The notes under the pieces are model-generated. The model was given only the letters and a program-made list of their open reading frames with translations. It was not told where the DNA came from and did no database searches. Source: a virus. From it: a stretch of DNA of 64,000 nt. The stretch's first letter is position 1. Each line of letters opens with the position of its first letter. Both the position numbers and the translations under genes were made by a program. Positions 19,674-28,898 of the stretch are shown here, one piece after another. The stretch spans positions 29,596 to 93,595 of IMG/VR virus record IMGVR_UViG_3300024999_000004; one strand, 5' to 3'.

Positions 19674-20672
19674 ATGCTCGCAGCCAAAGCCATACTTGCA
19701 GCAAAGAAACCTGAAGACATCTTCTCTTCTCCTGCCTCTGAAGATTCCTTGAAGAAGGAATTCCGGGCTTTGGCGAAGAAGTGGCATCCTGATGCTTCCG
19801 CCTCACCCCACGTCTCCTTAAACGGTGAAGTGTTCTCCCACATTGCCTCATTGTACGGAAAGGGCCTTGACAAGATTGCTTCAGGCACTTGGGGCGCGGA
19901 GGGGTTGCTCGTATTGGCGGGCAAGAAATACCCCTACCTGTCTAGTTCCCCCACGGATTCCGGAGATGTCTTTGTCGGTGATTCTTTCCTCGCTTACTTT
20001 GTGAAGAAGGAGTATTTCTCTCTCCTGAAGAACATCCCTATGTTGAAGTACAAGGATTCTTCCATGGAAAAGGAGATGAGTCGTTTCTTTGGGAGGGAAA
20101 TATCCGCAACCGCCATAGCGAGGGCCTCCGCACCTGACGGCACCTACCTCCTTTACGAGAAACAGAAGGGTGAGTTTCTTCTCTCCGACGTTGTAAAAGC
20201 AGGCACCATTCCCCCCAAACAAGCGGCATGGATTCTCAGTCGCTTGTACAACATCTCCTGCTATCTTCAATGGAGCGGCCTCGTTCATTGCGACATCAAT
20301 AGCGGCACGATCTTGATTGACCCCGCGAACCACGGACTCCGGCTTGTAGGTGGCTGGTGGAACTGCCACAAGGAAGGAGAGCACCTCTCTTCCTTGCCTT
20401 CCAAGACGTACTCCGTGCTCCCGCAGCGGCTTCTTGAAAAGAAGGAAGCTGTTCACGTTTTCGTGCAGGAGCAGATAAAGGCGGCGGGGAGGGAGATATT
20501 TACCGGGTCGGATGTTCCTGCGGCAATCAGGAATTTCCTCGAACTACCATGTGCCTCGGACAAGTCAGCGCAGTTTTATTTCTCGAAGTGGTATGAGGAT
20601 ATTCTTGGCAAGGCCTTCGGCCCGAAGAAATTCGTGCCCTGGGATCTTTCGGACAAGGATGTGTACAAGTAA
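19674..20672 (+). CDS. J-domain (HPD) fused to a protein-kinase-like domain
   Basis: LKKEFRALAKKWHPD; kinase-like LVHCDIN..TILID; LVGGW at the DFG position. Confidence 0.8.
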   Translation: MLAAKAILAAKKPEDIFSSPASEDSLKKEFRALAKKWHPDASASPHVSLNGEVFSHIASLYGKGLDKIASGTWGAEGLLVLAGKKYPYLSSSPTDSGDVFVGDSFLAYFVKKEYFSLLKNIPMLKYKDSSMEKEMSRFFGREISATAIARASAPDGTYLLYEKQKGEFLLSDVVKAGTIPPKQAAWILSRLYNISCYLQWSGLVHCDINSGTILIDPANHGLRLVGGWWNCHKEGEHLSSLPSKTYSVLPQRLLEKKEAVHVFVQEQIKAAGREIFTGSDVPAAIRNFLELPCASDKSAQFYFSKWYEDILGKAFGPKKFVPWDLSDKDVYK

Positions 20673-20725
20673 GTACTCCCGTACGGGGGTGCTGAGTTTT
20701 CTGATCAGTGAGAAGGAGTAACATT

Positions 20726-20854
20726 ATGGGTTTGGGAATTGACGAGGGATTCAAGGATTACGGCAGTGCCGAAGCGTCCGTGCAGGCTGCCCCGGTAGCC
20801 ACAGAAACCGCCGCAGAAGAAGCCACAGAAACCGCCGTGGAAGGGGAGGCCTGA
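20726..20854 (+). CDS. 42-aa acidic Ala/Glu/Thr-rich peptide (not in ORF track)
   Basis: AAGGAG SD; MGLGIDEGFKDYGSAEASVQAAPVATETAAEEATETAVEGEA; stop 1 nt before the vWA start. Confidence 0.65.
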   Translation: MGLGIDEGFKDYGSAEASVQAAPVATETAAEEATETAVEGEA

Positions 20855-20855
20855 T

Positions 20856-21782
20856 ATGGGAGGAGGAAGCTGGAGCCCGAGTTCATGGGCCACTCACGCA
20901 ACCGCTACCGCGTCGATGTCGCGCTCGGCATTGTACTCAAGCCGGGGCATCAAGAAGGAACTTGACCCCAAGGGCGTTGCCGTCAGGGAATCCCGGGACT
21001 CCACGGAGCACCCTGAATCGACGGCCATTGCCGTGTTCCTCGATGTCACCGGGTCCATGGGGTTCATCGCGGAGAAGATCGCCAAGGAGGGCCTCGGAAC
21101 CTTGTTCCAGGAAATCCTGGACCGCAAGCCCGTGCCCGATCCGCAGCTCCTGTTCGGGGCCATCGGCGACGTAAGGTGCGACAGCGCCCCGCTTCAGGTG
21201 TCCCAGTTCGAGTCCGACAACAGGATCGTGGAACAGCTCACCGGCATCTACCTCGAAAGCGGCGGCGGCGGAAACGACACGGAAAGCTACGATTTCCCTT
21301 GGTACTTCGCGGCAAAGCACATGGCCGCAGATTGCTTCGAGAAGCGTGGCAAGAAGGGTTATTTGTTTACCGTCGGCGACGAGTCCACCCCCGCAGGAAT
21401 CTCCCCGGAGCATCTGAAGGAGTTCCTCGGCAGCGCAGAAGAAATCACCGAGGAACTTTCCGCCGAGGAGCTTCTGGCCATGGCGGAGAAGAAGTGGAAC
21501 TGCTATCACATCATCGTCGAGGAAGGGAACTATTGCAGCTTGCGCGGGCGTGATGCCGTCCTCCGCAAGTGGCAGGATCTCATGGGCCAGCGGGCCGTTC
21601 CCCTTTCTGACTACACCAAGCTTCCTGAAGTCATCATCTCCCTGATCCAGCTTTCCGAAGGAGCTGACAAGAAGAAGGTGGTGGATTCGTGGGACGGTTC
21701 AACGTCGGTAGCGGTCGCCGCTGCTTTGGACGGGATAGTAGCCCGCTCGGGCGGCTCGGGCGCGGGCATGGTCGCCCTTTAG
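20856..21782 (+). CDS. vWA-domain protein
   Basis: MIDAS DVTGSM; GGGGN..ESY; FTVGDE. Confidence 0.88.
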   Translation: MGGGSWSPSSWATHATATASMSRSALYSSRGIKKELDPKGVAVRESRDSTEHPESTAIAVFLDVTGSMGFIAEKIAKEGLGTLFQEILDRKPVPDPQLLFGAIGDVRCDSAPLQVSQFESDNRIVEQLTGIYLESGGGGNDTESYDFPWYFAAKHMAADCFEKRGKKGYLFTVGDESTPAGISPEHLKEFLGSAEEITEELSAEELLAMAEKKWNCYHIIVEEGNYCSLRGRDAVLRKWQDLMGQRAVPLSDYTKLPEVIISLIQLSEGADKKKVVDSWDGSTSVAVAAALDGIVARSGGSGAGMVAL

Positions 21783-21799
21783 GACATAAGGAGAATCGA

Positions 21800-22969
21800 A
21801 TGAAAGGAATCGCCGTCATAGGAGCCAACTACGGAGACGAGGGGAAGGGTCTTATGACGGACTTCCTTTGTGCAAGGGAAGCCAAAGCAGGAAAGCAGGT
21901 ATTCGTTGTCCGGCACAACGGAGGCGCACAGGCGGGGCATACTGTGGTGGCTCCTGCCTCAGAGGGGGGCTTCCGGCATGTCTTCCATCACTTTGGTAGT
22001 GGAACCCTGCAAAGCATCCCCACAATCCTCGCCAAGGATTTCATTCTCAACCCCATATTGTTCCGGAAGGAATACGAGGAGCTTGAAGCTGCGGGGTACG
22101 CTCCCGAGGTTTTCGTAGACGTAAGATGCCGGATAACAACTCCGTGGGACATGGTGTACAACCAAGCACAGGAGGAAGCTAGGTCCCCCGCTGTGGCGGG
22201 AGGAGAGCGGCACGGAAGCTGTGGCGTCGGAATCAACGCCACGGTGGACAGGAATGAGGTGATTCCTTTCACTCGTGAGTCGGGTTGCCTGAGTTCGTTG
22301 GAGAGGATATCCGGGCACTACAAAAACAAGATGTTCCCTGCAGGGGTGCCATCAGAAGCCGAGAATTCTCGATTTTTTATGTCTCCGGGACTGGAAGAGG
22401 TGGGCCACGCATTCAGCTCTGATCTGTACTTCCTGATTAGGCACACTTCCGTCATGGATTATCCTCTTTGTCAACACCCCAATGCGGACAGCTTCACCTT
22501 CATCTTCGAAGGAGCCCAGGGCCTCGGACTCGATGAATATATGGGCTCCTACCCCCATGTCACGAGGTCCAATACGGGCCTGCGGAACGTCGTCGATTTC
22601 TGCCGGGAGCACAAGATAGACCTTGACGAGATTGTCTACGTGACCCGGAGCTACCTCACGAGGCACGGGAATGGGCCCATGGAAGGAACCCTATATTCTG
22701 AAGAAGCGTATTTCGAGGACAAGACGAATGTTCCGAACCCGTGGCAAGGGACTCTTCGTCAGAGTGCCATGGATGAGGAAGCCTACTTCAATATGGCGGA
22801 AAGAGTTGCATGGGATACTCAGTCAGTGGGAATGGGAAGCAAGCCGATATCTTTGGCTATCACTCACAATGACCAATTAACGTCCGAAGATTGGGAGTAC
22901 TCACTTATTCCTGTCAAGTACAAAAGCTTCGGGGAGACGAGGGAAGATGTGAAGGAGACCAAAAAATGA
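21800..22969 (+). CDS. purA: Adenylosuccinate synthetase-like protein (divergent PurA clade)
   Basis: GANYGDEGKG, GGAQAGHT, EGAQG, PHVTRS and TRHGNGP motifs. Confidence 0.88.
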   Translation: MKGIAVIGANYGDEGKGLMTDFLCAREAKAGKQVFVVRHNGGAQAGHTVVAPASEGGFRHVFHHFGSGTLQSIPTILAKDFILNPILFRKEYEELEAAGYAPEVFVDVRCRITTPWDMVYNQAQEEARSPAVAGGERHGSCGVGINATVDRNEVIPFTRESGCLSSLERISGHYKNKMFPAGVPSEAENSRFFMSPGLEEVGHAFSSDLYFLIRHTSVMDYPLCQHPNADSFTFIFEGAQGLGLDEYMGSYPHVTRSNTGLRNVVDFCREHKIDLDEIVYVTRSYLTRHGNGPMEGTLYSEEAYFEDKTNVPNPWQGTLRQSAMDEEAYFNMAERVAWDTQSVGMGSKPISLAITHNDQLTSEDWEYSLIPVKYKSFGETREDVKETKK

Positions 22970-23241
22970 ACAAAACGCCTGTTACTGAACAGGAAATAAA
23001 AGAAATATTCCACTCTTTCCTTCGAAGTAGAATTTCTGCAGGTGGATGGGAAGGCTATGCTTATACTGAATTCTGGAAATACCGAAGCGCATGCAACGAA
23101 TTTCTCGAAGAACATGGTTATAAAGCCAGTTGGGCGTACTTTGAACAAACCCTGTGGGGTAATGGTGGGTGGGGGTACAAGGACAAGATGGCTTGCTACT
23201 TGCGGGTAGTCCCTGCCCACAGTCACTGTGAGACCAAGTAA
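22966..23241 (+). CDS. Hypothetical protein
   Basis: AAGGAG SD; coupling. Confidence 0.6.
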   Translation: MNKTPVTEQEIKEIFHSFLRSRISAGGWEGYAYTEFWKYRSACNEFLEEHGYKASWAYFEQTLWGNGGWGYKDKMACYLRVVPAHSHCETK

Positions 23242-26387: not shown

Positions 26388-26603
26388 ATGCTTTGTTTCC
26401 AAGACCGCACCTTCTGCCCTTTTTATGAGACCTGCACCAAGGGCGTTACTTGCAGGGCCGCTCTGACTGAAGAGATTGTGGCGGCTGCGGAGGAGTGGTT
26501 CGCCTCCTGGGTCAAAGACAGAAGGCCGGGGGAGCAGGCTCCGGTGATGGTTCATTCTTCGGAGCCTTCTTGTTTTGTGCCTGCTGCGGGGGAGGACCAA
26601 TGA
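26388..26603 (+). CDS. Small Cys-containing protein
   Basis: AGGAG SD; CFQDRTFC...C...C. Confidence 0.7.
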   Translation: MLCFQDRTFCPFYETCTKGVTCRAALTEEIVAAAEEWFASWVKDRRPGEQAPVMVHSSEPSCFVPAAGEDQ

Positions 26604-27562
26604 AACTTGAAGATATTGGATTCTACTCCCTGTCTGATGCCCGCGCCGCTTCCGTGACGTGGGAGAGTGATCTTCAAAGGTGTGAGTTGATCCTGACCGA
26701 TAGATGCAATTTTCGCTGTACTTATTGCAGGGGCATCGGGGAGGATCTTCGCGGCGACCTCCCCCTTGAACAAGCGAAAGAGGTGATCGATATTTGGGCA
26801 TCAGGGAACCTCCGCAACGTAAGGTTTTCGGGAGGAGAACCTGCTGTGTGGAAAGACCTTCTTGCCCTCGTGAAGTACACCCGAAGCTTCCCTTGTTTCG
26901 AGCATATTGCCTTATCCACCAACGGCAGCTTCCCTATCGCATACTACCATGAACTTCTTCTTGCGGGGATCAATGACTTTTCCATCTCCTTGGACGCTTG
27001 CTGTTCCAAGACTTCCGATGCCATGGCAGGAGTAAACTCTCACTTTGATCACATCTCCGAAGTAATCCGTTATTTGTCAAAGCTGACCTACGTCACTGTA
27101 GGGGTCGTGCTTGACCGGCAGAACAAGGAAGAATTGAAGGATATCGTAGAGTACGCTTCCAGTCTGGGCGTCTCGGATATCCGCATAATCCCTTCAGCTC
27201 AATCAAACCATTTTCTCGACATTGATATTGAGACAGACCTTCCTATATTGAGGTATCGAATAACTCACCTGAAGCAAGGACGGCATGTTCGCGGACTTTC
27301 CGAATCAGATTGTCACAAGTGCCATCTGGTGAAAGATGACATGGTGGTCCTTCACGGAAAGCATTTTCCTTGTGTTGTCTACATGAGGGAGCAGGGGCCT
27401 GCCATAGGGGATGTGTACGGAAAGACTCTTGCTCAAATAAGGCAGGAGAGGAAAGAGTGGTTCGAGCGGACGGATACACATAAGGAAACGATATGCAAGA
27501 GGAATTGTCTTGATGTGTGCATTGACCATAATAAGTGTGCGGAGAAGGAGGAGATGCAATGA
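26600..27562 (+). CDS. Radical SAM enzyme (MoaA/NifB/PqqE-like) with a C-terminal Cys cluster
   Basis: CNFRCTYC; SGGEP; STNG; ISLD; CxxC and C-terminal CKRNCLDVC. Confidence 0.9.
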   Translation: MKLEDIGFYSLSDARAASVTWESDLQRCELILTDRCNFRCTYCRGIGEDLRGDLPLEQAKEVIDIWASGNLRNVRFSGGEPAVWKDLLALVKYTRSFPCFEHIALSTNGSFPIAYYHELLLAGINDFSISLDACCSKTSDAMAGVNSHFDHISEVIRYLSKLTYVTVGVVLDRQNKEELKDIVEYASSLGVSDIRIIPSAQSNHFLDIDIETDLPILRYRITHLKQGRHVRGLSESDCHKCHLVKDDMVVLHGKHFPCVVYMREQGPAIGDVYGKTLAQIRQERKEWFERTDTHKETICKRNCLDVCIDHNKCAEKEEMQ

Positions 27563-27753
27563 AAGCCTTTTTCAATTCCATGGGTGCTCTCGTCCTTGCT
27601 CCGGAAGACAATACGGAAAAGTATGCTTTAGGTAAATGGGTCAATGAAAACAGCTCGGGGAATTCCTGCGGCCACGGTGTATTTCTTTTCACCGGCAGAA
27701 TTCTTTCAGCGGAAGAGCTGAAGGTGGAAAAGGGGGAGACTTCATGTTCATAA
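27559..27753 (+). CDS. Small protein, paralog of 29416..29601
   Basis: KAFFN...PEDNTE.Y.L..W shared. Confidence 0.65.
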   Translation: MKAFFNSMGALVLAPEDNTEKYALGKWVNENSSGNSCGHGVFLFTGRILSAEELKVEKGETSCS

Positions 27754-28898
27754 TGCAAGGAAAGCACAATATCGCCCGCGTGATGCTGAAGGACGAATCT
27801 TTTCTTGACGGGCCCTCCCGAGCCCAGATTCAGGGATTCCTGAATTCCCCTGCCTTTGCAGGAAAGCCCATAACAATCATGCCCGACGTGCACTACGGGA
27901 AAGGCTCCTGCGTGGGCTTCACGATGCCTCTGTCTTCGCATATCCTGCCAGCTCAAATTGGGGTAGATATTTCCTGTGGCGTACTCGCAGCAAATTTCGG
28001 CCAAATCAGCGTCTCCGTGGAAGCTTTCGATTCTTTTGTCAGGGAAAACATTCCCTCCGGGCACAAGATAAATACCGACCCCGTGTACATGCACAAGGTA
28101 TTTGACAGCTTTCCCGGAGCGCTCGTGGATCTGATTGATTTGGCTGGAGCAAACCACGACAAGGCAGCGGGCGCTGTAGCCTCCTTCGGCTCAGGCAACC
28201 ATTTTTTGGAATTGGACCGCGACGAAGACGGGAACCTTTGGTGCGTCCTGCACTCAGGAAGCCGGAATCTCGGGCTCCGCGTAGCCGAGCACTTCATGAC
28301 CAAGGCACAGGAAAATCTTGCAAGGTATTTTATTGAAGTTCCCAAGGACGAGGCATGGATTCCCCTCGAAGACCCTTTGGCTGTAGCTTATCTTGAGGCG
28401 GTCAAGCTGATGCAGGGGTATGCGGAGCGCAACAGGAATGAGATGATGTGGAGGGTAGCTTCTTTCGTTCGCAGAGGTCCTCTTGAAACAGTACAATCTA
28501 TCCATAACTATATTGATTTCTCCGGAGTAGGGGGCTCCGCAATCATCCGAAAAGGAGCGATCTCCGCAAAGAAGGGCGAACGCTGCATCATCCCTTTCAA
28601 CATGGCCGAGGGCTCTGCAATCTGTATCGGAAAAGGAAACCCCGAGTGGAACTTCTCCGCTCCTCACGGAGCCGGGAGACTTCTGAGCAGGACCAAGGCG
28701 AAGGCAAGCCTCAATGTAGAGTCTTTTGTCTCCCAGATGGCGGAAGCCGGGGTCTACAGTACTTCGGTAGGAGCAAGCACCTTGGACGAAGCCCCGGGGG
28801 CCTACAAGGACAAGCAGATGATCCTCGACGCCATCGCGCCCACGGTATCCGTGGTTTCGTGGCTCAAGCCGTTCTATAATTTCAAGGCTTCTTCTTAG
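27744..28898 (+). CDS. rtcB: RNA ligase RtcB
   Basis: MPDVH, GVDISCG, GSGNHF, HSGSR, HNY, RKGA, SAPHGAGR and DEAPGAYK motifs. Confidence 0.95.
   Translation: MFIMQGKHNIARVMLKDESFLDGPSRAQIQGFLNSPAFAGKPITIMPDVHYGKGSCVGFTMPLSSHILPAQIGVDISCGVLAANFGQISVSVEAFDSFVRENIPSGHKINTDPVYMHKVFDSFPGALVDLIDLAGANHDKAAGAVASFGSGNHFLELDRDEDGNLWCVLHSGSRNLGLRVAEHFMTKAQENLARYFIEVPKDEAWIPLEDPLAVAYLEAVKLMQGYAERNRNEMMWRVASFVRRGPLETVQSIHNYIDFSGVGGSAIIRKGAISAKKGERCIIPFNMAEGSAICIGKGNPEWNFSAPHGAGRLLSRTKAKASLNVESFVSQMAEAGVYSTSVGASTLDEAPGAYKDKQMILDAIAPTVSVVSWLKPFYNFKASS

Follow-up and report, generated by a model that had tools for sequence, protein, structure and literature searches.

Gene content of the locus

We analyzed a 64,000-nt stretch of DNA, referred to here as the window, which corresponds to bases 29596–93595 of IMGVR_UViG_3300024999_000004, a complete virus record of 93.6 kb that has direct terminal repeats. 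It contains four tightly packed open reading frames (ORFs) on the plus strand: K (19674–20672, 332 aa), encoding a J-domain N-terminal to an atypical kinase fold; a small ORF (20726–20854) encoding an acidic peptide of 42 aa; V (20856–21782, 308 aa), encoding a protein with a vWA fold; and P (21800–22969, 389 aa from its ATG), encoding a paralog of the PurA family of ligases. A strong Shine–Dalgarno sequence precedes each of the four ORFs, and the GTG start listed for P at 21689 is an upstream extension of the ATG-started frame. This layout is the one described in an earlier reading of the DNA made without database searches (the sequence-only reading). The plus-strand block around the set is made up of auxiliary and replication genes, among them primase fragments, a phrog_1735 protein, a radical-SAM protein and an RtcB ligase.

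Conservation and distribution of the module

Gene context was examined in a sample of 160 loci, 80 of them viral and 80 bacterial. In 156 of these independent loci, V is followed by P in the same orientation, an order far beyond chance; the exceptions include loci cut at contig ends, and two loci (L049 and L086) with several kb downstream of V. K lies upstream of V in 99 of the 160 (61/80 bacterial, 38/80 viral). V and P also occur fused in the proteins P0275 and P0276 (652 and 715 aa), in which V forms the N-terminal part. Whole-genome searches of five phages with only the V–P core found no K (positive control, 4/4), so K is dispensable. V followed by P is thus the obligate core of the module, with K as a frequent, dispensable third member. 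The sequence-only reading had treated the genes as one unit and had proposed a gene-neighborhood analysis of the P clade; the conserved gene order and the fusion proteins support the unit, and P homologs are linked to V, and in the majority of loci to K, rather than occurring apart from them.

In the phage collection, V matched 219 records and P matched 238, with taxon tallies that agree: mycobacteriophages (201 of about 202; cluster C), phages of Rhizobium (10) and Vibrio (6), and a single fecal phage. In Mycobacterium phage Sebata, the kinase gene (gp260, phrog_3043) is followed by V (gp261, phrog_2971), then by a gene of 88 aa and finally by P (gp263). A profile search with V retrieved 298 relatives in IMG/VR and at least 574 in the GTDB species genomes, the latter distributed over Proteobacteria, Firmicutes, Acidobacteria, Melainabacteria, Chlorobiota and others. 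Bacteria with the module that can be cultured include Paracoccus homiensis, Massilia brevitalea and Acetobacter malorum. More than 5000 V (vWA) partners were counted at 90% clustering. Three related metagenome contigs were found, with 87–92% identity over the module by blastn. The upstream ORFs grouped as "cluster 7" are probably spurious-frame ORFs in GC-rich DNA, as judged by their position and composition. Literature searches found no paper describing the combination of K, V and P or its role.

The PurA-family protein P

P matches PF00709 (E = 1.8e-37, profile positions 1–278 of 416) and phrog_1211 (1.7e-56), and its C-terminal third is divergent from PurA. It scores below the cut-offs of the PurA equivalog models TIGR00184 (101.8 versus 395.55) and NF002223 (104.4 versus 402), and below that of the PurZ model NF038379 (48.3 versus 300). 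Residue statistics were obtained by comparing 150 members of the P clade with 6 canonical PurA sequences. The PF00709 fold with the GDEGKG P-loop, Asp13, His41 and Gln224 is conserved in 149–150 of the 150, Asp13 being present in the window protein and in 149 members. Lys16, Thr239 and mostly Asp333, within the T-x-x-D guanine motif, are also kept, and all of these features are shared with PurA (EC 6.3.4.4; E. coli structures 1ADE and 1CG0).

In contrast, the P clade differs from PurA at Asn38, Thr129, Arg131, Arg143, Val273, Thr301, Arg303 and Arg305. Val273 is replaced by His, and Thr301 by Gln, in all 150 members. The canonical aspartate loop, G-x-T-T-G-R-x-R-R, is retained in 6/6 canonical controls; in the P clade it reads [WFY]-Q-G-x-[LIF]-R and is one residue shorter, with Arg303 replaced by Thr, Ser or Ala and Arg305 by Leu, Ile or Phe. 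Thr301, Arg303 and Arg305 are the residues that we take, from the E. coli PurA structures, to bind L-aspartate. Among the contacts to the 5'-phosphate of inosine monophosphate (IMP), Thr239 is kept, Asn38 is replaced by Gln and Thr129 by Cys or Val, and conservation is lost at Arg143, which is contributed by the partner subunit. At position 240, 97/150 members have a new Arg that might substitute at the IMP-phosphate site. Arg131 is replaced by hydrophobic residues.

Because the phosphotransfer residues are kept, the aspartate loop is lost and His273 is invariant, P is neither a canonical PurA nor a PurZ. All five bacterial carriers tested have a canonical purA (~590 bits) beside the P paralog (~140 bits). 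P, unlike PurA, is always paired with a vWA gene and coexists with the housekeeping enzyme. The loss of the aspartate loop, the scores below both sets of cut-offs and the retention of purA by bacterial carriers uphold the view of the sequence-only reading that P is not a simple purine-supply gene. One record filed as viral, L179 (CAKLQH020000034.1, "Acinetobacter phage MD-2021a"), carries alaS, epd, hisZ and a canonical purA, and looks like a bacterial chromosome filed as a phage.

A P homolog in a viral contig (L073:3403–5925) is interrupted by an intein with a LAGLIDADG homing endonuclease, located exactly between His41 and Thr42, which suggests that this motif is under strong constraint. 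In a FastTree phylogeny of P, the canonical PurA controls formed one clade with a support of 100, and viral and bacterial labels were interleaved, with at least six switches forced by well-supported branches.

The vWA protein V

V gave no match to Pfam, including no vWA or TerY model at E ≤ 1, and matched phrog_2971 at 6.5e-44. An AlphaFold2 model built from the family alignment had a predicted local distance difference test (pLDDT) score of 82.5, and Foldseek matched it to an integrin I-domain and other vWA structures with probability 1.00. The metal ion-dependent adhesion site (MIDAS) is complete, and its residues, D63-x-T65-x-S67, T172 and D175, are invariant. V is therefore a MIDAS-containing vWA protein, as had been recognized from the sequence. 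Of 120 family members, 114 start with MG-[SGA]-G-[SR]-W, and an aromatic-x-x-Tyr motif comes next; this N-terminal MG-x-G-x-W tail is conserved yet poorly ordered in the model.

The J-domain protein K

K matches the Pfam DnaJ model with an E-value of 5e-05 and a score of 23.8, under the gathering score of 27.8, and matches phrog_3043, annotated "kinase", at 1.7e-05. The AlphaFold2 model from the family alignment (pLDDT 91.6) shows a bilobal kinase fold preceded by an HPD motif at residues 38–40, flanked by helices 23–37 and 47–70. HPD thus occupies the loop between helices II and III that characterizes a J-domain. The top Foldseek match in the PDB was the human oncogenic DnaJB1–PKAc chimera (4wb7), followed by many kinases. 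K resembles this chimera, and the J-domain co-chaperones of the DnaJ family, in having helix II, HPD and helix III, followed as in the chimera by a bilobal kinase fold; unlike the chimera, its architecture is natural and conserved in bacteria and phages, and its kinase part lacks the canonical catalytic residues.

The K family comprises 1226 representatives at E ≤ 0.001, all full length at about 335 aa. HPD (H38 and P39 at least 90% conserved, D40 invariant), H205 and H220 are conserved, and GGWW is invariant. The conserved HPD and the confidently modeled fold agree with the proposed fusion of a J-domain to a kinase fold. The sequence-only reading had also noted that HCD is kept and that Asn and DFG are replaced. 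This holds for the window protein, in which H205-C-D207 is present, Asn at +5 is lacking and GGWW stands in place of DFG; across the family, the Asp of HCD is not conserved: although the most frequent residue at its position, it occurs in only about one third of members, and phage Sebata has Ala there. The family has no conserved β3 Lys, catalytic-loop Asn or DFG, and so lacks the signature of an active Ser/Thr kinase. Because the conserved catalytic Asp, Asn and DFG are lacking, a pseudokinase is the likeliest reading of the kinase-like domain, and K is probably one.

A tblastn search of the phage collection with K gave no match at 1e-3. A pairwise BLASTP comparison with Sebata gp260 gave an E-value of 3e-9, with the alignment starting at K residue 3 and including HPD.

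In many phages that lack K, a phage protein of about 230 aa is encoded just upstream of V (L002:4237–4950, L003:3735–4526, L030, L031, L053, L065, L071 and L073). Its N-terminal motif, VDGVVWD, is conserved; its C-terminal half is rich in Met and Gly, with FFD at the C-terminus; and it has no Pfam or PHROG match.

The small ORF and the stem-loop

An AAGGAG lies 7 nt before the ATG of the small ORF, whose stop overlaps the V start (TGATATG). The duplicated ATETA of its peptide is encoded by GCCACAGAAACCGCC at 20798–20812 and 20822–20836, a direct repeat of 15 nt at the DNA level, with a period of 24 nt. The ORF is still open in L180, the relative with 87% identity, where it has an in-frame 9-nt deletion. 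The first 14 residues are conserved (MGLGIDEGFK.YG), with 3 synonymous and 2 replacement changes in 17 codons; the tail has diverged and lacks the ATETA repeat, which is therefore a recent duplication. A phmmer search of the 160 loci with the peptide matched only its own genome. Judged from these comparisons, the 42-aa ORF is a lineage-specific accessory. The strong Shine–Dalgarno sequence and the duplicated ATETA reported earlier are both present in the window, whereas a role of the peptide as a core component finds no support, given the absence of homologs in the 160 loci and of the repeat in the close relative.

Small ORFs in the same slot begin with MG in four other lineages (the sisters L120 and L139, L042, L049 and L056), and share an aromatic-x-acidic-Tyr/Met-small motif at positions 9–13. 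The pattern drawn from them matches 7 of 33,334 ATG-started ORFs, 5 of the 7 in that slot; because it was derived after seeing the ORFs, it is a lead and not a test. The idea that the acidic C-termini of the small ORFs act as MIDAS ligands was set aside, because the V Shine–Dalgarno sequence lies within those codons and forces Glu/Gly.

The spacer that separates K from the small ORF contains, immediately following the K stop, a plus-strand stem-loop with a terminator-like match (20672–20693). In L180, pairing is possible (by eye) despite substitutions on both arms, and there is no T-run. It looks more like an mRNA-processing or stabilizing hairpin than a terminator.

NAD context of the bacterial copies

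A divergent regulator with NUDIX and NrtR winged-helix domains (PF21906, 1.4e-18; NUDIX match weak) is encoded upstream of the module in 41 of the 80 bacterial loci, a link that the sequence-only reading had missed. NrtR-type regulators sense ADP-ribose. NAMPT is encoded near about 10 viral copies, and Rhizobium phages have phosphoribosyltransferase and NMNAT/NUDIX genes a few kb from the module. The bacterial copies beside an NrtR-type regulator and the viral copies beside NAMPT recall the NrtR regulon and the NARP1–3 systems of phage NAD+ reconstitution; none of the NARP1–3 enzymes is homologous to K, V or P, and the NARP3 paper makes no mention of the three. The genome of the window phage showed no NrtR, NUDIX, NAMPT or other NAD-salvage gene, and no gene for Hsp70. 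A search for an NrtR operator yielded only a lineage-specific palindrome, TGTTAT-N6-ATAACA, in Competibacteraceae; its single match in the window, with 2 mismatches, lies elsewhere and is at chance level.

Interpretation and alternatives

The locus is the phage copy of a conserved, uncharacterized V–P(–K) module. We propose, with a probability of roughly 55%, that P is a GTP-dependent purine-C6 ligase that uses an acceptor other than aspartate and works in a complex with V. P would phosphorylate O6 of a 6-oxopurine nucleotide using GTP, and a non-aspartate amine would then receive the activated C6. V would bind P stoichiometrically, as an activator, scaffold or acceptor. K would recruit host DnaK to the complex through HPD, its kinase-like domain serving only for binding, and the 42-aa peptide, whose N-terminus resembles the N-terminal tail of V, would be an optional add-on. 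The phage would express the module among its auxiliary early or middle genes, most likely to sustain replication while the nucleotide or NAD pools of the host come under attack.

Several points weigh against this proposal. The substrate, the acceptor and even the catalytic activity of P are read from alignment only, and the alignment of the aspartate loop contains a gap, so that one Arg may compensate for those lost. The unusual conserved His/Asp/Trp set of the K family may mark an atypical enzyme rather than a dead one. As the window phage lacks NrtR, NUDIX and NAMPT, the connection to NAD is borrowed from the bacterial copies.

Apart from the PurZ variant, a single reaction is known for the PurA family. 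The P clade forms a third, large branch with a rebuilt acceptor site; it occurs in at least 574 species of bacteria and in about 220 phage isolates, always next to a vWA protein and frequently next to a natural J-domain/kinase-fold fusion. In bacteria, the module appears wired to a sensor of NAD breakdown, a central battleground between phages and bacterial immunity. The product of P, once identified, would add a new nucleotide or protein-modification chemistry, give a function to three gene families labeled "hypothetical", and correct the widespread RefSeq label on cluster C mycobacteriophages.

A more specific form of the chemistry can be imagined, which we consider unlikely: P may attach a purine nucleotide through C6 to the α-amine of the N-terminal Gly of V or, in some lineages, of free micro-proteins that begin with "MG...", the 42-aa ORF product being one example. 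K and DnaK would then load or recycle the acceptor. Such putative N-terminal "purinylation" would be consistent with the Met-Gly start of V in nearly all members and its conserved, poorly ordered tail, with the loss in P of exactly those residues that bind the aspartate side-chain carboxylate, with the free V N-terminus in the V–P fusions, and with the MG-starting small ORFs that share a motif between K and V in four other lineages.

Alternatively, the module could be a bacterial conflict system, whose enzyme makes a toxic or signaling purine derivative as ADP-ribose rises and which phages captured as a decoy, regulator or superinfection-exclusion device. The variable flanks of the bacterial copies, the adjacent sensor regulator and the label switches forced on the P tree all fit this idea, and kinase- or pseudokinase–vWA pairings in plant immune receptors offer an analogy only. 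V and P had no PADLOC matches, however, no effector-like toxin domain is present, and the occurrence of the module in essentially all (~200) cluster C mycobacteriophages argues for a phage-helping function; we consider this explanation unlikely. An ordinary auxiliary metabolic gene, with P as a working adenylosuccinate synthetase that boosts the phage supply of AMP and V and K as unrelated neighbors, would account for the PF00709 match, the retention of Asp13, His41, Gln224 and the guanine-specifying Asp333, and the PurA-like names given by GenBank annotators to the mycobacteriophage homologs. It is distinctly unlikely in view of the loss of Thr301, Arg303 and Arg305 in 150/150 clade members, the low TIGR00184 score, the purA already possessed by bacterial carriers, and the strict linkage of P to V, which extends to fusions.

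The sequence-only reading had drawn a link to Ter-type loci, and a vWA gene beside a kinase-fold gene is indeed what the module shares with the TerY-P triad of vWA, PP2C and Ser/Thr kinase. In contrast to that triad, the module has no phosphatase, includes a PurA-like enzyme, and has an inactive-looking kinase that many carriers lack altogether. A phospho-signaling cassette of this type is very improbable and was rejected, as V has no TerY-type match and no PP2C, TerD or TelA neighbor was found in the window or among the conserved neighbors of the 160 loci. Most improbable of all is that P is the PurZ or PurZ0 (2-aminoadenylosuccinate synthetase; PDB 6FM1, 7ODX, 7VF6) of a phage with a Z-genome (2-aminoadenine in place of adenine), a reading suggested by the PHROG and RefSeq labels. 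P is likewise a phage-borne PurA paralog, falls in the same PHROG, and belongs to a phage with a family-A DNA polymerase (PolA). All phage PurZ/PurZ0 carry Ser in place of Asp13 (PMC12884076), whereas P keeps Asp13; PurZ still uses aspartate, whereas the P clade lacks the aspartate loop. The PDB matches of P include no solved PurZ structure. The genes that accompany PurZ are DatZ (HD) and MazZ (MazG/DUF550) or DutZ/DmtZ; no partner gene of the DatZ, MazZ or DutZ type, or more generally of the MazG or HD type, was found in the complete genome. The defining residue, the NCBIfam score and the missing partners led us to reject this reading. In RefSeq, cluster C mycobacteriophage homologs (e.g., NC_041993.1 gp263) bear the PurZ-type name "2-aminooxy adenylosuccinate synthetase"; their clade retains Asp13 and falls short of the PurZ model, and the name is probably a propagated mis-annotation.

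Neighboring genes

Downstream of P, a 91-aa ORF at 22966–23241 has an ATG that overlaps the P stop (ATGA). It has no Pfam match and no counterpart in two 90–92% identical relatives (L181 and L182), in which the gap to the next gene is shorter. The radical-SAM protein and the RtcB tRNA/RNA ligase are encoded a few kb further downstream, at 26495–28898, and are possible RNA-repair or counter-defense genes.

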